DNA of 64,000 bases from positions 1,364,001-1,428,000 of the forward strand of contig NW_019028981.1 of assembly GCF_002105155.1 (NCBI RefSeq). The letters are read 5' to 3'. The notes beneath the pieces were generated by a model. It ran no database searches, was not told the DNA's origin, and was given only the letters and a program-made list of their open reading frames with translations. Origin of the DNA: Lobosporangium transversale (taxonomy: Eukaryota). Positions 4,274 to 46,147 of this stretch are shown here, piece after piece (the stretch's first letter is position 1; each line of letters opens with the position of its first letter). Position numbers and translations under genes: made by a program.

Positions 4274-6432
4274 ATGACGCAGCATCAATACCAGCAATTC
4301 CGAAAGGACGGCATTATTGAACACGTTTGTGTTAGAATTGTCTCCACTTCTGCAAGCAATGGTGGCCCATCCTGCTATGTGACCTTGCAAGATATTCGAG
4401 ACGTGTTTCCAAACGCACAACGATTCAAGCTAGACGGACTTCCTATCCCGTTCCTTGTAGACTCTAGTGGCAGCAGGTATATATTGATTATGGCACGCCT
4501 TATCAACTTCAAGTATCTCTGGAAGGAAAAAGAAATGAAGGAATTCAATTTGGAATATATCTTCTTAGAATCGAACCGCTGCGCATTGCGTTCTATCCTT
4601 ACAAGGTTCTGGATGTAATTGCAGAAGAACCACAGCTCAGTAACGCTAACAGCGGTAGCACTGCTGGCATTTGTTTGCCCACATCGGGGAGGTCGGCAAA
4701 TCTCGACAGACTTACTACTCTTCAAAAGCATACTCATGCTATCCTCATCCAGAATTTAGAGCTTCATGATTGTACAATCCCTCGACTATTCATAATGTTG
4801 CCTGTCGACCACACCAATTGGGACCCGTTGAACATCCTGAAGAACAAGCTCCGCCTTCATTTTCTATGCGAATGTGGGGGCTATACTGCAAACACGAGCG
4901 AGAGCAGCCAGAACCAAATCCATATTGCCAAGCACGACGGATATGAAGTCCGAAACAGCATAGAGTTCTTTCGCAAATATGGGAAACGCATGCTCATCCT
5001 CTTACAATGGCTTAAAGTAGCAATACCCTCATCTGCTTCCCTGGCACCGGTCCCACATCTGGTCGATGCCGGCATTGATTATTCAATTGACTATATAGAG
5101 GCGCTCTCTAAGGAGAATCTGACCTTGAACAACATCAACAAAATCGATGACTATGAACCACTTGAAGGAGCCGATCCACAACAACTACTCTCATTCCTCC
5201 GAACCAACGATGAGGATGAGCGACTTGGCAACTTGTACAAGATCATGACCGAAACAGGCCGTGTTAAATGGATTTGTGTCGACCACTATCGTTTGGCATA
5301 TAAAGAAGAGGAACAAAAGGCATTTGAAGGTGTAGTGGGGGAGAATAGAGGCAACTATGACTTACACCTTGGTAAAGTGATGATCATATTGAGATCCAAA
5401 GTCAGAGCTGAGGAATTTTTTACTGCCCTGGCGAATGTAAGACATGTTTACGAGCTGGATATCACATTCGACTGGGATTGGACCGTGAATGAGCTTGAAG
5501 CATTCGAGAGTGCTTTGAAAGTGTCAAGCATATCGGTTCTTCGGCTTGATATTGGTCGGTTTCAAAAAAGTATCAATGGGGAAGTGCTTTCAACGTCTAG
5601 GCAATATGACGCACTTGTTCGTATCATAAAACTCAACAATATGAAAACGATTCATATTACTCTATCGCCGGATCTCATAAAACTCCCCAGCCTACGACCC
5701 AAACAATCGTCACAACTTCATAAGTTATCCTTTGGGATGAGTTTTCGATCGATTGGAGCCAGTGAATTACTATTAATTGTAAATTCACTAAAGAAGAACA
5801 TGGCTTTAACCACACTGGCCTTGAACGACAATTCAATTCGGAATGAAGGAGCTCTAGCACTGTCAGAAGCGCTCAAAAATAATACAGTTTTGACTACTTT
5901 GGACCTGAGTAACAACTCAATTGATGAATATGGGGCTGCGGCATTATCAGAGGCACTCAAGACCAACACAATGTTGACTACTTTGAATTTATGTGGCAGC
6001 CTAATTGGAGATGCAGGAGCTCAGGCACTCTCAGAGGCGCTTAAAGTTAACACCACTTTGACTACTTTGGACTTGAGTGACATCAATAATTTCGCGTCAT
6101 GGATTTTCAGAATTGAGGACCGAGGAACCTTAGCACTGTCAGAGGCACTCAAGGTCAACACGGCTCTGACCACCTTGAGATTGAGGGGCAACTTTATTGG
6201 AAATGAAGGGGCTCTTGCATTATCAGAAGCACTCAAGATTAACAAGACTTTGGCCACCTTGGACTTGGAGAGAACCTTGGTTGGGGAGGAAGGAGCTCTG
6301 GCATTATTAGAGGCGCTCAAGATTAACACTACTTTAACCACTTTGGAAGTAGATAGAGAGAAAATCGGGGCTAGAAGAGCTTCGGCATTATCAGAGGCAC
6401 TCGAGGCTAACGCAGCATTGACTTTTTATTGA
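4274..6432 (+). CDS. RNI-like leucine-rich-repeat protein of an expanded Mortierellaceae-type family (~688 aa), 2 exons
   Basis: Exon 4274-4476 splices (GT-AG) to 4569, giving RIEPLRIAFYP in frame with ORF 4675-6432. Central IPRLFIMLP..LHFLCECG..HDGY domain; about eight 28-aa repeats ALSEALKxNTTLTTLxL..N.IG.EGA. Confidence 0.85.
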
Positions 6433-6588: not shown

Positions 6589-6709
6589 GCTTGCGGCGGC
6601 TTAGTAGTCATAGTGATGTTGCTTTTTGATCTTTAGATGTCGGTCCTATCTCCCCTTGCAGTGCGATCCTCGTATCTCGGCGTTGTTGAAAGTTCATTCT
6701 TTCCAATAG
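6589..6709 (+). pseudogene. Degenerate fragment of 28S/LSU rRNA (peptidyl-transferase region)
   Basis: GCTTGCGGCGGCTTAGTAGTCATAGTGATGTTGCTTTTTGATCTTTAGATGTCGG-TCCTATC resembles the recalled eukaryotic LSU segment GCTTGTGGCAG..AAGCGTTCATAGCGAC.TTGCTTTTTGAT.CTTCGATGTCGGCTCTTCCTATC. Similarity fades after ~70 nt. Confidence 0.6.
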
Positions 6710-7504: not shown

Positions 7505-8220
7505 ATGGGAAATAGGATGGAGCAATGGTTTCGTCTCCTCGCATTGAGTTGCCTTTGGTATGTGCTTCCATAAACCCCAAAGCCGAGATGTCTTTTTATG
7601 TGATCGTAAGTTGCTCCTTGTTTATTATATCCTACAATTGTCACATCTTCTTTAAGTGGCTCGGGAGTACTGTTACTACATTTGGATAGAGAGGATGTAA
7701 TTTCTACTCTTACCGCAGCACGAACGGCCGTCTCCCGAAGAAAAAAAGTTGACGCATAAATGTCGTGAGGAGCCCCATTCAAAAGCCGCTGATCATGCTC
7801 AAACCCTCCTGGATGCCTTACAAGAACGGTTTGAAAAAAAGCTCAGAGTACAAAAGCGCCATTTTGTCAACATTAGCAAGAAGATAAATACTGCCTTCCA
7901 CTGGGAAACGGATTCTCGCTGGCTTTGCTAAGTACATGAGATCTAAAAATTGAAACGTTCAAGAATTCAAGAATGCCCTTATGAAGCTACTTTGCAATTA
8001 CTAGTGACTGTTTCCCTGGCGACATTATTGTATCGGCAGACAGCGACATGCTAGCATATAACGATATAATGACCAGCTGGCGGCCCATGTTTAGGTATAA
8101 AGGCTATATCTATCACGTCCCGACCATGTGAGGCCACTTGGGCATCTCAAGGGAACAGTTGACCGCGCTGTGAATTGTCTCGAAAAAAACTACAATTATA
8201 ACATCGCACAAATGGGGTTC
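7505..8220 (+). pseudogene. XPG/FEN1-like PIN (5' flap-type) nuclease domain remnant
   Basis: NG..EEKKLTH..R (DG..P.EK-like motif), ECPYEA(D)FAI at 7971, DIIVSADSDMLAY (DSD at 8039-8047) and an H3TH-like LGISREQLTAL*IVSK(ND)YNYNIAQMG. Disrupted by stops and frameshifts; the 5' boundary is uncertain. Confidence 0.75.
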
Positions 8221-8246
8221 ACCGCCTTCGGGGATGTCAACCAAAA

Positions 8247-8545
8247 AACATCAAGATTTTGGGCCTTAACTTCGGTCAAGCGTGTATAATTGGTGCCGGT
8301 GCTTTGTTGCCAAGTCATGGGAGCGCCAATGGCACAGCCACACAACCCAAGTTCTATAATCTGACTATCAAGCAAAAGGCGGTGTATCGCCAATCGTTTA
8401 CTCAAGATAGTGAATGGTCCAGTTGAGGCAAAAAGAAAAGAGGCCGACAAGGCTGTGGTTGCTGTAGGTCTGGGAAAGTTTTCTTCCAATACCAGGCTTT
8501 CTTCCTTACATGAGCCGCTCCAATTTTACTTCATTCAAATAGTAA

Positions 8546-8580
<35 letters not shown>

Positions 8581-8956
8581 GTTTTCTTACCTTATAGCCG
8601 ATATTAATACATCGACACTTCTTCTAGGCCAAATCCCTTGGATAGTGGGAGCGAATATTATACTTTTAAGAAGCGCCCGCCCGAGCTGCGAAGAATTTGT
8701 AGGACAAGTTGATATTCACCGGCTCTATTGTTCCAAGTGCAAGGCTTTTATGCACAGGGTTGTGATGACTAGCCACAACATAGCTAACGTCGTCCGCGGT
8801 CATCTAATACACCAGCAGCGACCCCTCTACCTTGAGCTGATAGACAAGGATAGAGCATATCCATGAATGAAAGACCATTGCTCAGTGTACGCCAAACGTC
8901 AAGCACCCTTCAAGGCTGAGGAGGAATCAAGGAGCCGTAAGAAAATCCACTTATAG
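8247..8956 (+). pseudogene. Fanzor/TnpB-like RuvC + zinc-finger nuclease remnant with a spliceosomal intron
   Basis: RuvC-I IKILGL(N)FGQ (8250-8279); VAVGLGKF..RLSSLHE..YFIQI | intron 8542-8627 (GTAAGT..TTCTAG) | AKSLG..VG..EYYTxKK(R)PSC (RuvC-II Glu at 8653); CSKC (8729-8740); MHR(V)VMTSHN (RuvC-III). A basic tail ends at TAG 8954-8956. Confidence 0.8.
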
Positions 8957-9060
8957 TTCTTAAATTAGTGAGTCTAAAAAATATGCGTATTAGCAAATAC
9001 GTTTAGACTAGGTCACAGTCACGCCTATGACGTATTTAAGAGAGGTTTGTGCTGTACTTC
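8957..9060 (+). ncRNA. Candidate omegaRNA scaffold (nested stem-loops) immediately 3' of the Fanzor-like ORF
   Basis: Exact complementary arms TCTTAAAT 8958-8965/9034-9041, AGTCTAAA 8971-8978/9002-9009, CGTATT 8986-8991/8996-9001 and GTCA 9018-9021/9028-9031. The position fits TnpB/Fanzor guide loci. Confidence 0.45.
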
Positions 9061-9084: not shown

Positions 9085-10483
9085 TTACAGGAGGGTGTCT
9101 ACATTCATAGATGTATCGTTATCATCAACAGGAATAGGGGTGCCTACTTCAGACCTTGGCGGTAGTGTAGGCGAAGGTTGGTAGCCTATTCTAGGTGTCC
9201 CCGCTGGTGTAATACCTAAAGAGTCTGTTGAGTGAGTACGGTGGAGACCCATCCTGAAGGAACCTTCTTCTCCCGATTGTCCTATCGTCCCATTGGTAAG
9301 TGTATTCGTCGGTCCTAAAGCAGGACTTTGTGATCCAATGCTGCTATTACTGCCCTTGCCTGATCCACCCAAGGACAATGAGTGCTGCATTTCATTCACA
9401 ATAACAGATATCGTTGAGGCGGGTCTGGGTGTAGTTGTACCTCTAGTAGTGGCTCCATCACCCGCACCATTGCTGTGAGCACCATTACCACCTCCATCAC
9501 CTTCTACGTCCGCTGTGACATCTAAGCTTCCTTCTTCAGCATGTGCAAAACCATCCTCCTGTTGGTCCTCCTCCTCATCATCCTCCGGATGTGTCCTCTT
9601 CAAATAAAGTCTCCTCTGTTCTTCCTGTTGATCCTCTTCGATCGAATCATGAATATTCTGAAGACATGAAAATGCATCATAGAACTGTTTCTTCCTCAAC
9701 TCCATAACAAGCCCCTGTCGAACAGCTTCATCTTCTAACTCTTGGATCTCGGATTGTAGAGTAGCAATGCTCTCCTGATTAGATTGTCGACTAGGAAAGC
9801 GTGAAACCTCGGTCGCTAACTGATCATAGAGGATTTTGTTGGCACGTTCTTGCTTGGCTTCCTCAAGCTCTCTCGTCAAGACTTCGAGTTCTTTTTCTGA
9901 TCGTGCAATATTTTCTTCTGTCCGTTGTTGTGATTGTTCATAACTGAGTCGTTCCCGTTCTGCCATCTCTGCTACAAGCTGTGTCTTGGAGATTGAGAGC
10001 TCAAAGTAGGTTACTTCATGCAATAAACTCTGAAGTTCCCTTTCACTGTTTTTATAAAAGAAAAAAAAAAAAAAAGGTTTTTTTTGAGATTACGATGATA
10101 ATACAGAGCGAGTATGGTTGCAAAAGAACGTGTCTTTCTTTTATTTTTTTATTTTTGCTTCTTTACAATCAACATTATTACATTCTCTTACATGTCTTCA
10201 TTTGTACCAACAGACAAAGCTTGACACCATTTATGAAAGCGAGTTGTTAATATCCTAAGAGGCCTCTCATTGACGTTCAATCGCGCCCTGATTATATCTT
10301 TTCCATATATCAGCCAACAGTGAAGTAGGATTGTAAAAATAATGAATAATTGTACAGATCAGCCTATTGCCATTATACCGATATTTTTATCCATGAACAT
10401 GTCTCCCTTAAAGTGTATTTCGAAAGTGGAGGAAAAAATAATACACTAAAGATGGATGGACAAAACCTACCTTCGTGGTCCAT
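9085..10483 (-). CDS. THOC7: THO complex subunit 7 (Thoc7/Mft1 family), 3 exons
   Basis: Exon 1 MDHE (10483-10471), exon 2 DIIRARLNVNERPLRILTTRF, then a coiled-coil ORF with AKQERANKILYDQLA..PSR and LRKKQF. Confidence 0.85.
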
Positions 10484-14000: not shown

Positions 14001-14627
14001 CTTTTGAAGGATAGCAAGTCTGTCGAGGGCTTGATCTTGCATTTTACTATCCTTCGCCTTGGACTAAAACTGCAGTTGAACCATCATGAGAACTGGATCT
14101 GGCCTGCCCTTGAGTTGATGAAATCTAAATGGGTAAATTTGCCCGTTCTACGATCCAAGAGGTATTTTATAGATCCGCAATACTTTGCTTTTTTTAAGCG
14201 GAAGTCGCGTATTGCTCGTATCGCAAAGGGGCCCGATCTCTTTCACACGTCTATCATTTCGCTATTATTCTGTCTAGTCAATTCAGTAGTTGCCTCTCTC
14301 TCTCTATTCTTTTTCTTTTCTTCTCTTCAGTTCTCTCTACCTCTAGTTGTCGTAGCAAAGATGGTGAGAGATCATCAACCGGGGGTAATAGCAGGCGGCG
14401 CTAGAATAATATCGCATAAATACATTACTTTATTGATAGGATACAAACATTCTGAATATACTGTATATATAACTTTCTCTCAACTGGGCTATCTCTCACC
14501 GTGGCTTCTGCAGCATCCATATCAAGTCCAAAAGCTTTCCTATCCTTTCCGTACTGTGAGATAGTTGCCTTTTCTGACACGAAAGCACTAGACTTTAAAA
14601 CCAATGTCAAGTTACAAAAGTTTACTT

Positions 14628-40966: not shown

Positions 40967-42411
40967 TATTGAGCTATAAAGTTAATATATATGGTGGGTA
41001 CAGAAAGGTAATATCGCAAAAGCGTGAGACTAACAAGTGAATGAGAAACAGTGGGCGATAGAATGAGTGAATGAGATGGTCGCAATTAGGGAAGTGAGGA
41101 AGAGAGAGGGAGAGGGGGGGGAGAGGGGAGGAGAGGGGTATAAGAATGTTTTCATTGAGATGCAACCACATCTATGCTCCTTGTCTGTTGTTTAACCATC
41201 CAGCAATGGTGGTTGCACAGAAAAAAGAATGTTAGTTAGTAATTGCGTTCAGACTCCATGCGGCGACAATCAATGTATGGCAGTTTTGTGTTCTTAGATC
41301 TCTTTCTCTTTCTCTTTCTCTTTCTCTTTCAGAAGAAGAAATAATCAAGCTCTTCCCCTGTACAAGTTTAGGAACAGACGCTTGCACTTCACTGCAAACA
41401 GTAATGTGCATAGTTGGCGGTCATGGACATGGACATATTTGCAATCCATCTATCCTCACATGGCAACTTTTTTCTCTCTTACCATCCAGAATTCGCAATG
41501 CTCTTTTCCACTGTCCTTCATTTAATCCCAAGAAAAAAAAAAAACGTGTGCTCTCGTTTCCTTCAAGGAATATGTGCTACCAAATGAACATGAAAATATA
41601 CTTCTCTTTAATCCTTGTGTAACTGTGTAACCTGCTGCTCAATGGTCACTGCTTATTACTGTATCTTAGTCTGCCACACTTTCTCCTTCTCCTTTGGAAT
41701 ATATTTTTGTCTGGCATCTTTATTTACTTCTGCTTGCTGCTATGAGTCAAGCTTACTACTTTCCTTTCCATACATCGATAATCATGTATACTCCTTTTAT
41801 TCTAAAGGTGCATCAAAATTGGGGTCATACATGGATATGGTTGCTCTCGTCCTTAGTTACAATGTCGACAAATAGCTCATTAAAGGATAATAGTACCAAT
41901 TCCATCCTGACTTCAGTGTAGCCATCGCTGTCATGAGCAACGAGACGAGACAGAAGACATATACCTATGTATCACTGACCGCATTGTATAATGCCCGCTC
42001 AATGATAATAATCGTGAATACCGCTGTGTTTGAAACATAAGTCAATTCCAAATACTCTTAAGGAGGGCCTCGTGTCGATAACGGACTTCAATGCGGATAG
42101 GCTACCATCGTTAAACCTTACTCTAATACTCGCAGTGAAGCATTGGCGTGATCTAGGCGGCCTTTGAGGCTTGTAAATAAATAAATAAATAAAAAACAAA
42201 ATATAAAAAAGTTCGTTATTATGAAGAATGTGCATAAGCCTTGTTTATATGATTATCCTCGTAGCCATGGTCCATATGTGTGACCTCTTTTTATTCCTTC
42301 TGACCGAGAAAAAACTAAAAATAAAATAAATAAAATCTAGCGTTCGCTCTGATCTACTCTCTATCTTCTTTTTTCTCGCTCAGGAACACATCCAGCGTAT
42401 TGAAGTTCCAA

Positions 42412-43305
42412 ATGAGCGAGTATGACACTTCTGATCCAATTATACACTCTCTCCAGAGCCAGCTGGCTACACTCACCAGCCGGCTTGAGGCTCTCTCGAC
42501 TAGCTCTGAATCCAGTCGATCGAACCCCTACTTGGTTCCAAAAGAACCAGCTTACGAAATTACACCTGACGACTCCATTCTCGTCCACTACCCAGCAATG
42601 GACGGGAAAGATTTTTTCAAACATAAATCTGGAAACCGTGCAGACGATCTTGCATATGCAACAGAAATGGCTAAAGAGATGCAGTCTTTTGCCAAAAACA
42701 CAACCCAAACCTATTCTGCACCCAAATCGGCACTCATTGACTGGCCCGACTCTTCCTCTCACCACAGTTCCACGGACAAAACAATCTCACGCTATCAATC
42801 ACGATTGACAAACCTTACAAGACCACTTGATCAATTTGCCACGGAAATGTTTTCCTACGAAGTTGACCCTGCGGTCGCACAAGCGTGTTTACAGCTCGCA
42901 CAGACAATGCGTGAACATATTGCACACCTTGCACAGCAAATGTCAAGCGACAGGGAGGACCTTGTTTACCAAGCGCACAAAATTTCAGTCACCAAGGACA
43001 CAGTTGATCCACCAATTGTCTCTACTTCAGACTTCATTGAAGCCAGCAAATTGGCAAAGAGTGTTCGTCAGGCTACTAACCCGACAAGACAACGGGCGTA
43101 CAACAGGAGGACTCAAAACCGGAGTTTCTTTAGCGCAAATACTCATCCATCGGGTCAAACTCAGACCGCCCACTATCAAAATGACAATGGTTCTTTTTTT
43201 GGGCGAGGCCAAAATCCAAGGAGAGGGGGACGAGGCCGAGGCCGAGGCTACCAAACCCCTCAATCCAACCAGACAAGTCAGGCACAGACTGCAGGCCAGC
43301 AGTAG
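42412..43305 (+). CDS. DIRS gag-like ORF1
   Basis: First ATG after the left ITR, coiled-coil N-terminus, RPLD motif, RG-rich C-terminus (RRGGRGRGRG). Confidence 0.8.
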   Translation: MSEYDTSDPIIHSLQSQLATLTSRLEALSTSSESSRSNPYLVPKEPAYEITPDDSILVHYPAMDGKDFFKHKSGNRADDLAYATEMAKEMQSFAKNTTQTYSAPKSALIDWPDSSSHHSSTDKTISRYQSRLTNLTRPLDQFATEMFSYEVDPAVAQACLQLAQTMREHIAHLAQQMSSDREDLVYQAHKISVTKDTVDPPIVSTSDFIEASKLAKSVRQATNPTRQRAYNRRTQNRSFFSANTHPSGQTQTAHYQNDNGSFFGRGQNPRRGGRGRGRGYQTPQSNQTSQAQTAGQQ

Positions 43306-46147
43306 GTGGCCGTTTACAGATTTACAGAGAAGCATGGGCTCTCATAACCGACAACGAATGGGTCAAGTCGGTCGTCTCCGAGGGATTCAAAATCCCTTTC
43401 CACAAACGGCCACCGATATCCAGTTCAACAGCGTACCAAGCTCGAGTAGCAGCGGAGGAAGAGAAGGCGATCGATCAAGAGGTAATCGCACTCTTAGCCA
43501 AAAGAGCAATAGAGGTCGCTTCGGGCCCTGGTTTCAAGAGCCGAATATTCACTATCCCCAAGAAAACCGGGGACATTCGTCCAGTCTTAAATCTAAGACC
43601 GTTGAATGCCTACGTCTCAGAGCGGCACTTCAAAATGGAGACGATGACGACAGTATGCGCAATGTTACAGAAGAACGACTTTATGACAAGCATCGACCTA
43701 TCAGACGCATTTTTTCACGTACTAATCCATCCAGATTATCGTCATTATCTACAGTTCCAATGGAAGAACCGGAAATTTCAATTCCGTACACTTCCCTTCG
43801 GGCTCTCACTCTCTCCGCTAGTGTTCACCAAAGTTCTCAAGCCTTTCCTCAAATGGGCACGACGACGAGGAATTCGCATATCAGCGTACCTAGACGATTT
43901 GATAATCCTAGCCAAGAACAAAGAACAATCAATCCAGTTCACTCAACTAGTGCAAGACAAGTTGGCAGCGCTAGGATTCCTCATCAAGGAAGCCAAGTCT
44001 ACGTTGATCCCGTCACAGAAAATAGACCATTTAGGCTTCACCATCAACTCCCGGGATATGACTGTCACAGTTCCGAAATCCAAAGTCAGGGACATACGGC
44101 GCGAGGCAGGAAAGCTACTACGAAAAGGCGCCACTTCTTTAAGGGAACTTTCTTCGTTCGTCGGGAAAGCAATGGCAACATCTATGGCAGTGTTCCCAGC
44201 GCGATTCATGACACGGAATCTGCTTCACCTCAAGAACACAGCACTAAAAGCCAAGGGAGCTTCTTGGTCGGACACGGTCACCCTCACGGAACCAGCCAAG
44301 GAGAACCTTCAATGGTGGAAGGAGCAATTGACGTCATGGAATGGTCTGTCATGGATTCAACAACAGACACAGATGGACATATACACGGATGCATCGGACA
44401 CCGGATGGGGGATCGTGATCAACAATCAAACATGGAGTGGCAAATGGACTCCACAAGAGAAAGACCACCACATCAACTGGAAGGAACTACAGACAGTTCT
44501 TCGAGCTGTTCAACTACCAATAACACAGGGCAAAATGATCAACATCATATGCGACAACACGACGACGATTGCACACATCAACAGGTTCGGAGGGACGAGG
44601 TCTCCGGAACTAATGAGACTAGCGGACACGTTATGGCGTCACTGCCTAGCAACGGGGACTCGACTTCGGACGACATACATCCCATCTGCATTCAACCCAG
44701 CGGATGCACCGTCACGGCGAATGATATCGCAATTGGAATGGAGGATCAGTCGCCCATTCTTTCAACAACTGGAACACCACTGGGGGCCACATCAGGTGGA
44801 CCTATTTGCGTCGGCACAGAACAAACAGCTACCGACATTTGTCTCATGGAAATTCCATCCAGATGCTCTGAAGATAGACGCCCTTCAACACAACTGGACA
44901 GAGATGGGCAACCTTTACATTTGCCCCCCATGGAATCTTCTATCAATCATCTTGGAGAGGATACAGACCCAGAAGCTGACAGCAACAGTAATAACCCCAT
45001 GGTGGCCGAGTGCAATATGGTTCCCAACCATCAAGGAGATGGCAGTAGCACCACCAATCCCGATCCCTCGGGAAGCAGTCCTACCAGCCGTCGGAAGCGC
45101 AAGCGATCTCCTCAGCAAGAATCCACTCTGGTCATTGACAGCATGGAGAATAAGAGGCGACGTAAAGATCTAGATGCAGGACTCTCACCATCCGCTATCA
45201 CTCTACTAGATTCAGCAGGTGCCAACAGCAAAACACGTCGACAATATCTGCCAACTCAAGAGGCTTTCGCAGTATGGGCTCAACAAGAAGGCTTCGACCC
45301 TAGTACGCCAAATGCAATTGCTGTAGTTAACTATTTATGCCATGCGCGGATTATCTATTCTTGGAGTAGGAATACCACTCTTAACAAAAAATCAGCCATC
45401 TTAAAGCTTTACGACGACACATCCGTGATCACAGGCAATATCTACTTTCAGCGGTTCATGGCAGCAATGAAAAGTACTGGCGTATTTCAAATGGAGCACG
45501 TATCCGCACTCGACATTTCACCCATCCTTTCATACTTCCGCATGGAGGACAATGTGGATCTTGATATGCCTAAGCTCTCTCGCAAGCTCTGCTGGCTCTT
45601 AGGCGTTTGTGCGTTTCTCCGGCCAGATGATATCGGTTGCATCGATGTGTCAAAGTCAGAGACCGATGAAAAGGGTCTTCTCCTTACCATAGTCTTCCCT
45701 AAGGAGCGACGCGATGGGCAGCGCATCATAAAGTCGATCTTCGTAGGTAGACACCCTAACGACAAGAAAATTTGCCCAGTCGAGGCCTATACAGAATACA
45801 CCAGACGGATAGCGGACACACCTCTCGAAATCGAGCACCACAAAGATCAGGATTATAAATTCAATCCTCTTATGCGCTTTGTGAAAGACAAGTCTAAAGT
45901 CCTTAGGGTCAGTACCATAGGCACTTTTATGAATGAAATCACACGTCGAATTCCAAATCTTCCGTCGAAACGGCCTCCACCAAAGCCACGCGCTATAGGA
46001 TCAACCTTGGCAGCCATCGCTGGCGTATCAACCCAAGATATCATGGTTCAAGGGAATTGGTCGTCTGACAAGGTTTTCAACAAACACTACCGTGTTTCCC
46101 GCAAAGCCAATTCAAATTTGACGACGTCTGTTTTTGGTTCGCTCTGA
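42827..46147 (+). CDS. DIRS tyrosine recombinase ORF with a long N-terminal extension overlapping pol
   Basis: C-terminal FLRPDD, PKE, CPVEAY, RAIGST, GNWSS..VF.KHY. The frame is stop-free for 1106 codons; the true start is uncertain (first ATG at 43181). Confidence 0.85.
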   Translation: MINLPRKCFPTKLTLRSHKRVYSSHRQCVNILHTLHSKCQATGRTLFTKRTKFQSPRTQLIHQLSLLQTSLKPANWQRVFVRLLTRQDNGRTTGGLKTGVSLAQILIHRVKLRPPTIKMTMVLFLGEAKIQGEGDEAEAEATKPLNPTRQVRHRLQASSRWPFTDLQRSMGSHNRQRMGQVGRLRGIQNPFPQTATDIQFNSVPSSSSSGGREGDRSRGNRTLSQKSNRGRFGPWFQEPNIHYPQENRGHSSSLKSKTVECLRLRAALQNGDDDDSMRNVTEERLYDKHRPIRRIFSRTNPSRLSSLSTVPMEEPEISIPYTSLRALTLSASVHQSSQAFPQMGTTTRNSHISVPRRFDNPSQEQRTINPVHSTSARQVGSARIPHQGSQVYVDPVTENRPFRLHHQLPGYDCHSSEIQSQGHTARGRKATTKRRHFFKGTFFVRRESNGNIYGSVPSAIHDTESASPQEHSTKSQGSFLVGHGHPHGTSQGEPSMVEGAIDVMEWSVMDSTTDTDGHIHGCIGHRMGDRDQQSNMEWQMDSTRERPPHQLEGTTDSSSSCSTTNNTGQNDQHHMRQHDDDCTHQQVRRDEVSGTNETSGHVMASLPSNGDSTSDDIHPICIQPSGCTVTANDIAIGMEDQSPILSTTGTPLGATSGGPICVGTEQTATDICLMEIPSRCSEDRRPSTQLDRDGQPLHLPPMESSINHLGEDTDPEADSNSNNPMVAECNMVPNHQGDGSSTTNPDPSGSSPTSRRKRKRSPQQESTLVIDSMENKRRRKDLDAGLSPSAITLLDSAGANSKTRRQYLPTQEAFAVWAQQEGFDPSTPNAIAVVNYLCHARIIYSWSRNTTLNKKSAILKLYDDTSVITGNIYFQRFMAAMKSTGVFQMEHVSALDISPILSYFRMEDNVDLDMPKLSRKLCWLLGVCAFLRPDDIGCIDVSKSETDEKGLLLTIVFPKERRDGQRIIKSIFVGRHPNDKKICPVEAYTEYTRRIADTPLEIEHHKDQDYKFNPLMRFVKDKSKVLRVSTIGTFMNEITRRIPNLPSKRPPPKPRAIGSTLAAIAGVSTQDIMVQGNWSSDKVFNKHYRVSRKANSNLTTSVFGSL
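43185..45173 (+). CDS. DIRS pol: reverse transcriptase, RNase H, adenine-methyltransferase-like domain
   Basis: The frame is open from 43185. Motifs VGGRL..W..GFKIPF, IDLSDAFFH, LPFGLSLSP, AYLDD, TDASDTGWG, HINWKEL, CDN, NPADAPSR, VDLFAS, YICPPW. Confidence 0.93.
   Translation, partial: QWFFFWARPKSKERGTRPRPRLPNPSIQPDKSGTDCRPAVGGRLQIYREAWALITDNEWVKSVVSEGFKIPFHKRPPISSSTAYQARVAAEEEKAIDQEVIALLAKRAIEVASGPGFKSRIFTIPKKTGDIRPVLNLRPLNAYVSERHFKMETMTTVCAMLQKNDFMTSIDLSDAFFHVLIHPDYRHYLQFQWKNRKFQFRTLPFGLSLSPLVFTKVLKPFLKWARRRGIRISAYLDDLIILAKNKEQSIQFTQLVQDKLAALGFLIKEAKSTLIPSQKIDHLGFTINSRDMTVTVPKSKVRDIRREAGKLLRKGATSLRELSSFVGKAMATSMAVFPARFMTRNLLHLKNTALKAKGASWSDTVTLTEPAKENLQWWKEQLTSWNGLSWIQQQTQMDIYTDASDTGWGIVINNQTWSGKWTPQEKDHHINWKELQTVLRAVQLPITQGKMINIICDNTTTIAHINRFGGTRSPELMRLADTLWRHCLATGTRLRTTYIPSAFNPADAPSRRMISQLEWRISRPFFQQLEHHWGPHQVDLFASAQNKQLPTFVSWKFHPDALKIDALQHNWTEMGNLYICPPWNLLSIILERIQTQKLTATVITPWWPSAIWFPTIKEMAVAPPIPIPREAVLPAVGSASDLLSKNPLWSLTAWRIRGDVKI

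Follow-up and report, generated by a model that had tools for sequence, protein, structure and literature searches.

Positions 7728–9060 of the plus strand of the window, that is, of the whole 64-kb stretch of DNA analyzed here, are a dead remnant of a fungal transposon protein, broken up by stops, frameshifts, and internal deletions. The intact proteins of this family are predicted from a structural model to combine an Exo1/FEN1-like 5′ nuclease domain with a whole Fanzor1, and the fusion is a two-nuclease variant of Fanzor1 that has been catalogued in Fanzor lists but whose second nuclease is apparently undescribed.

Translation of 7700–8950 in the three plus frames gave short pieces interrupted by stops, and Pfam searches with single window fragments returned nothing relevant. 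Profiles searched against the whole window detected the XPG arch, I-region, and H3TH at 7728–8217 (E 2.5e-16 and 4.3e-21), RuvC-I from 8217 with the motif KILGL at ~8250 (E 1e-13), and the piece ANRLLKIVNG directly past QKAVY, which ends at ~8387, in a different frame (E 1.3e-15); the spliced alignment of the N-terminal part scored 300, versus 36 on reversed DNA. The first-pass annotation, made from the letters alone, had described an XPG/PIN piece abutting RuvC-I on the same strand and a jump from QKAVY to ANRLLKIVNG, and had taken them as a probable fusion protein that lost several hundred codons in at least two deletions. Indeed, the H3TH piece runs to 8217, where RuvC-I begins, and two deletions of ~620 and ~84 codons could be mapped on an intact relative, the 1186-aa protein P0016, whose numbering is used throughout (Table 1). 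The extent then proposed, 7700–8400, does hold the fusion pieces, but the feature runs on to ~9060 through an intron, the RuvC-III/zinc-finger part, and a structured right end. The helical region removed at the second junction is probably the bridge helix.

Table 1 Features of the decayed gene copy in the window, with residues numbered as in P0016.
Feature	Position	Strand	Residues of the intact protein	State in the window
Exon 1 remnant: Rad2/XPG (FEN-like PIN) nuclease with helical arch, EA-, DSD, H3TH	7728–8217	+	~82–241	4 frameshifts, 2 stops (alignment to P0016, from 7734)
Deletion junction 1	8215–8219	+	241 to ~860	~620 codons and introns 1–3 gone (H3TH end, linker, WED/REC)
RuvC-I region	8217–8387	+	~860–917	Asn at the catalytic Asp position
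Deletion junction 2	8385–8390	+	917 to ~1002	~84 codons of helical region past RuvC-I gone, frame altered
Piece spanning the canonical RuvC-II position (Gly in relatives; Fanzor-type rearranged site)	8388–8541	+	~1002–1050	
Intron 4, GT-AG, phase 0, common to relatives	8542–8627	+	past 1050	
Last exon: alternative-Glu motif, TNB zinc finger, RuvC-III, tail up to stop	8628–8956	+	1051 to protein end	2 frameshifts, 1 stop; alternative-Glu motif frameshifted; Val at the RuvC-III Asp position
Predicted omega-RNA scaffold, stem-loop 1	8971–9009	+		
Stem-loop 2 region, TGACGT motif (9028), and right MULE terminal inverted repeat	9010–9060	+		Stem-loop 2 shortened; TGACGT conserved

Besides the deletions, the copy carries no fewer than 6 frameshifts and 3 stops, its rearranged RuvC site is broken, and WED/REC is deleted. 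A third loss removed residues 1–81 and all upstream parts; neither these residues nor a left terminal inverted repeat (TIR) or a transposase was found in the 64-kb window, and the window holds no second copy of the fusion gene. An origin of this copy as a retrocopy was rejected, since intron 4 is retained and junction 1 does not coincide with a splice site.

Intact relatives were collected with a 60-aa query from the window (8684–8863), which returned 8 of 8 candidates. One of them, P0005, has the H3TH piece of the window at its start and the RuvC-III piece, 900 aa on, at its end; used as the query, it gave 79 proteins at E ≤ 0.001 among 7,986 scored, 77 of them carrying an organism name, in genera that we take to belong, all 77, to Mortierellaceae. 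By hand count, 42 of 85 proteins match the PIN piece of the window as well as the RuvC pieces within one chain. The intact relatives comprise 1,100–1,350 aa and come from Mortierellaceae and also from Umbelopsis; the fusion is present in Umbelopsis P0239 and in a divergent 1281-aa protein, and the Atlas contained a single cluster of 1312 aa assigned to Mucoromycota at 0.99. Scanning metagenome contigs yielded 123 confirmed matches, of which 80 loci were kept and 20 span residue 1 to beyond residue 1120; an earlier scan with P0016 as the sole query had found 0 loci, and viral contigs gave 5 weak matches covering the zinc finger only.

The gene structure of these loci supports, at the level of sequence, a single gene encoding both nucleases. 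GT-AG introns past residues ~256 (phase 1), ~330 (phase 2), ~637 (phase 0), and 1050 (phase 0) were found in 16 of the 20 full-length loci, 13 of which, from 9 distinct lineages with 38–57% best-segment identity to P0016, have neither stop nor frameshift. The introns were called with a purpose-made spliced aligner, for which a false intron could mask a frameshift, and extra non-triplet introns were called in L014/L018, L032, and L078; L020 and L031 read through with exactly the four introns and no others. The single XPG-REC/WED-RuvC chain postulated in the first-pass annotation is thus recovered as one spliced frame with four conserved introns, and in the intact relatives PIN and RuvC lie in one chain rather than in separate genes. 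Damaged loci also occur (L012/13/17, L022, L047, and L066). At L039:7–1523, XPG exon 1 is followed directly by residue ~848 onward, which reflects either an internal loss like that in the window or a chimeric assembly. One read run, whose kind was guessed, covered the introns without a clean splice joint and was treated as DNA.

That two separate genes were merged by gene predictors would agree with the many proteins ending after the PIN domain: a profile of exon 1, searched against 50%-identity representatives, gave 4,498 hits at E 0.001, and among the best 150 of them, 81 comprise the PIN domain only, while 35 extend to REC or RuvC and 20 to RuvC. However, 62 of these best 150 lose similarity at the end of exon 1, most stopping within tens of residues, so that most PIN-only hits look like exon 1 read on into intron 1 by an intron-blind gene caller, although some may be stand-alone forms. 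Of the four introns, intron 1 alone could separate the PIN domain from the remainder of the protein. It is a GT-AG intron in the same phase in 19 of 20 loci and measures only 77–147 nt (13 loci measured), and therefore leaves no room for a gene end and a new promoter. Moreover, the PIN fold in the model continues past intron 1 to residue ~297, and L078 lacks intron 1 and reads through, which together make a merger of two genes very improbable.

An AlphaFold2 model of P0016, built from a 35-sequence alignment (pLDDT 79.9, pTM 0.64), contained an Exo1/FEN1-like domain and a whole Fanzor1. In Foldseek searches with this model, the top matches were SpuFz1, GtFz1, and PpFz1 (~800 columns, E 4e-11 to 3e-9), followed by Exo1 and FEN1. 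With a second structure aligner, residues 2–297 matched Exo1 (Z 22.7, rmsd 3.0, 272 aligned) and FEN1 (Z 22.2), and residues 445–1122 matched PpFz1 (Z 17.8, rmsd 3.9, 488 aligned). The part missing from the window copy, expected in the first-pass annotation to be WED/REC, folds as Fanzor1 WED/REC in this predicted model, and the linker between the two domains contains low-confidence stretches. Comparison of HMMs ranked Rad2 (E 1e-12) and XPG (6e-9) before FEN1 (5e-7) and Exo1 (1e-5) and aligned the acidic residues of the N-terminal domain to those of Rad2/XPG. The domain thus appears to be Rad2/XPG-like, nearest to Exo1/FEN1 in predicted fold and to Rad2/XPG in sequence. Among the 20 long proteins, Pfam XPG_I or XPG_I_2 reached E ≤ 0.01 in 11 and the Pfam cut-off in 1, and TNB (PF07282) exceeded the cut-off in 19.

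Against a mean column identity of 27%, and counting only alignment rows with a residue at the position concerned, the 5′ nuclease site, whose PIN acidic residues the first-pass annotation had suggested checking for conservation, keeps its full set of seven at 88–100% per position (D35 20/21, D78 28/29, E163 29/31, D165 30/31, D182 28/32, D184 33/33, and D232 33/34), together with K85 (28/29) and R92 (27/28) of the helical arch. The RuvC triad is also kept (D877 35/35, alternative E1063 26/28, and D1097 27/27), as are the four Cys of the zinc finger (26–28 of 28–30 rows). The canonical RuvC-II Glu position is occupied by Gly (G1026, 32/32), 37 aa from E1063; a rearranged RuvC with an inert residue at the canonical RuvC-II position and an alternative Glu ~45 aa away is given as a Fanzor signature in passages of PMC10530073. 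The parent protein may deserve the label of dual-nuclease RNA-guided effector. By eye, the more divergent Mortierellaceae FZ1 clades in the supplement of PMC10432273 (1,100–1,790 aa) also have an XPG-like start; the EAD motif is altered in some of the divergent FZ1 clades there, in which the first nuclease may be dead.

Compared with the Fanzor1 proteins of known structure (SpuFz1, 8GKH/9CEU; GtFz1, 9CER; and PpFz1, 9CF0), the fusion shares the WED/REC/RuvC/TNB fold over ~680 aa, the rearranged RuvC (Gly at the canonical Glu position and the alternative Glu before the zinc finger), and the presence of introns, but has only 10–13% identity to the solved proteins and differs by an extra N-terminal Rad2/XPG nuclease of ~300 aa and a basic linker of ~150 aa, for a total of 1,100–1,350 aa. 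With Exo1, FEN1, XPG/Rad2, and GEN1 it has in common the nuclease fold (Z 19–23), the MG start, the seven acidic residues, the arch Lys/Arg, and the H3TH, at 15–18% identity; unlike these enzymes, it is borne by a transposon and joined to a predicted RNA-guided nuclease.

In 6 lineages (L001, L014/18, L026, L028, L030, and L043), a homologous spliced gene lies upstream of the intact gene on the opposite strand, divergent and head-to-head with it; exon pieces of this putative transposase gene match PF10551 (MULE) at E 4e-4, which falls short of the cut-off, and reach 20.4 bits with SWIM, for which the cut-off is 19.6. TIRs of 25–29 bp with 92–96% identity bound L001, L002, L014, L018, and L028, and L001–L003 share 7,460 bp at 99% and diverge at both ends into different flanks. 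To judge from these features, the element is an autonomous-looking, recently mobile Mutator-type transposon carrying the fusion gene. Fanzor1 copies within MuDR-type TIRs of fungi have been noted in Mucorales (ROr-4, PBl-3, MCi-4; passages of PMC3627910), where they are listed without a MuDR transposase and without mention of XPG, in contrast to the head-to-head putative MULE transposase of the present elements.

In 7 of 7 cases, the left flank of an element shared no 8–11 bp duplication with the right flank on that contig, multi-copy metagenome contigs being able to mispair flanks, and neither a target-site duplication nor an empty site was found among the metagenome loci. Of 9 left flanks (among them L001:140–170, L002:188–218, L003:180–210, L012, L014, L028, and L043), 8 carry an ACGT/ACGC/GCGT core 12–14 nt outside the TIR, versus 1 of 28 right flanks, for a motif picked after inspection of the data and flanks from 4 families. 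TGACGT is invariant within the right end and degenerate within the left end. The ACGT-like core may mark either a TAM or a site targeted by the transposase. Elements were also seen inserted beside each other's ends, in L001 head to head around one motif. A further family (L043:1–4905; L038 and L040–L046) has the full putative MULE transposase and ends and a Fanzor that begins at residue ~644, with no XPG domain and half of REC missing. With nothing but the C-terminal half of Fanzor, this family still spreads, so neither nuclease is required for movement.

The right end of the intact relatives is predicted to form a two-hairpin, omega-RNA-like scaffold. Stop and TIR are ~130 nt apart in the relatives, a spacing that has been retained. 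In 21 hand-picked ends, stem-loop 1 (SL1, 6 pairs) is 88.9% paired, with 17 both-side changes versus 6.4 after shuffling, a number that 0 of 500 shuffles reached and that exceeds all slid controls, although this control leaves the kinship of the sequences in place. The last 75 nt form one long hairpin that includes the TIR (SL2), with z < −2 in 14 of 21 ends versus 2 of 18 flanks; RNAalifold on a MAFFT alignment recovered SL1 and not SL2, which was scored per sequence. A model built without the window placed 8965–9057 best of 8 matches in the 64 kb (E 0.011) and gave a match 3′ of the gene in 50 of 80 loci, a count that includes 21 training sequences. In the window copy, SL1 is kept and much of the 5′ strand of SL2 is lost; its own right end folds no better than shuffles (z −0.9), and Rfam gave only 2 matches, far below the cut-off. 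A two-stem structure between the stop and the right inverted repeat is shared with the solved Fanzor1 systems, the omega-RNAs of SpuFz1 and PpFz1 having SL1 (seven pairs) followed by SL2 at this place according to parts of PMC10432273 and PMC11423790.

The foremost proposal for the role of Fanzors in cut-and-paste transposons is the cutting of empty sites, in reliance on host recombination. By analogy with known Fanzors, the right end would be transcribed as an omega-RNA with flanking DNA as its guide, and RuvC would cut the guide-matched empty donor site after cut-and-paste excision. We propose that the tethered 5′ nuclease would trim back the 5′ ends left by the protein's own cut, making 3′ single-stranded tails, and that the break would be repaired by copying from the sister chromatid or another nucleus with the element, restoring the lost copy. 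The chance that tethered resection steers repair to copying from the filled allele is, in our estimate, evenly balanced, and we are about half convinced of the explanation as a whole, namely an Exo1/FEN1–Fanzor1 fusion with guided cut, 5′ resection, and copy-back. A natural two-nuclease OMEGA class, in which resection or incision forces homologous copy-back and the left-flank motif 12–14 nt out is the transposase target or TAM signal, could equally well stand or fall. The movement of the L043-type family with a transposase and only residues ~644 onward of Fanzor is a counterpoint to the necessity of the nucleases, and engineered exonuclease fusions that impaired MmeFz2 editing (passages of PMC12923547) count against the resection idea.

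If the domain were instead an R-loop junction endonuclease nicking the border between single- and double-stranded DNA, both centers would make a double-strand break, or the displaced strand would be trimmed. XPG and Rad2, its best sequence matches (E 1e-12), cleave bubbles and flaps, the arch residues K85 and R92 are kept, and the low-confidence stretches of the linker would permit the reach. However, the RuvC triad is intact, single-RuvC Fanzors cleave both strands unaided according to parts of the literature on them, and Exo1 and FEN1 tie as matches to the fold (Z 22.7 vs 22.2), so that we consider junction nicking unlikely. Similarly doubtful is a function apart from guided cutting, in which the domain would process 5′ flaps or gaps of MULE intermediates or trim the 5′ end of the omega-RNA and would have been fused through a shared promoter: the head-to-head putative MULE transposase in 6 lineages and the action of FEN-like enzymes on flaps and RNA-DNA hybrids (passages of PMC5499597, in whose searched text TnpB and RuvC are absent) would fit such a role, but the fusion persists across Mortierellaceae and Umbelopsis, and none of the 80 loci, a sample biased by having been picked by RuvC motifs, shows a stand-alone copy linked to a MULE.

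P0016 is catalogued in Table S2 of PMC10711439, and both PMC10711439 and PMC10432273 list members of the family as FZ1/Fanzor hits in their supplements; in the latter, many Mortierellaceae proteins among the FZ1 rows have, by eye, the same N-terminal motifs, one of them being named 'Rad2 nuclease' at NCBI. By term look-up, XPG is unmentioned in the main texts of PMC10711439, PMC10432273, PMC10530073, PMC3627910, PMC10691335, and PMC11423790, and the term 'XPG' occurs 0 times in the readable text of three supplements, figures (among them S1B of PMC10530073, on domains) lying outside this text search. The literature searched, whose coverage excludes subscription papers, yielded no paper on a Fanzor-XPG fusion or on a Mortierella Fanzor. 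The engineered exonuclease-Cas/Fanzor fusions treated in parts of PMC12923547 likewise tether a 5′ or 3′ exonuclease to an RNA-guided cutter, but the present fusion is natural and old, and the engineered Fz2 fusions had reduced activity.

A Fanzor with its own end-processing nuclease, whose sites are intact across a fungal family and beyond, makes the empty-site idea directly testable in a system of one protein whose two active sites can be separated, autonomous-looking elements whose ends are defined, and a predicted scaffold. Editors meant to steer repair to deletion or homology-directed repair, for which bolted-on exonucleases failed in the case of a Fanzor2, may also find a natural model in such a protein.

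The window is fungal, with spliced genes and named relatives that are all Mucoromycota, and the remnant is flanked by a leucine-rich-repeat gene (4468–6432) and a THOC7 gene (9085–10089). By eye, 6590–6655 resembles what we take to be a short large-subunit rRNA snippet, for which Rfam gave no large-subunit rRNA match. Weak matches at 14212–14565 on the minus strand, collinear with the MULE transposase in its C-terminal part (profile E 0.012, tblastn E 0.17–0.59), are likely a separate decayed Mutator fragment within a second LRR-like gene. Finally, overlapping long open reading frames with matches to RT, RNase H, and a Dam-like methylase lie at 42334–46144 on the plus strand, presumably a DIRS-type retroelement.
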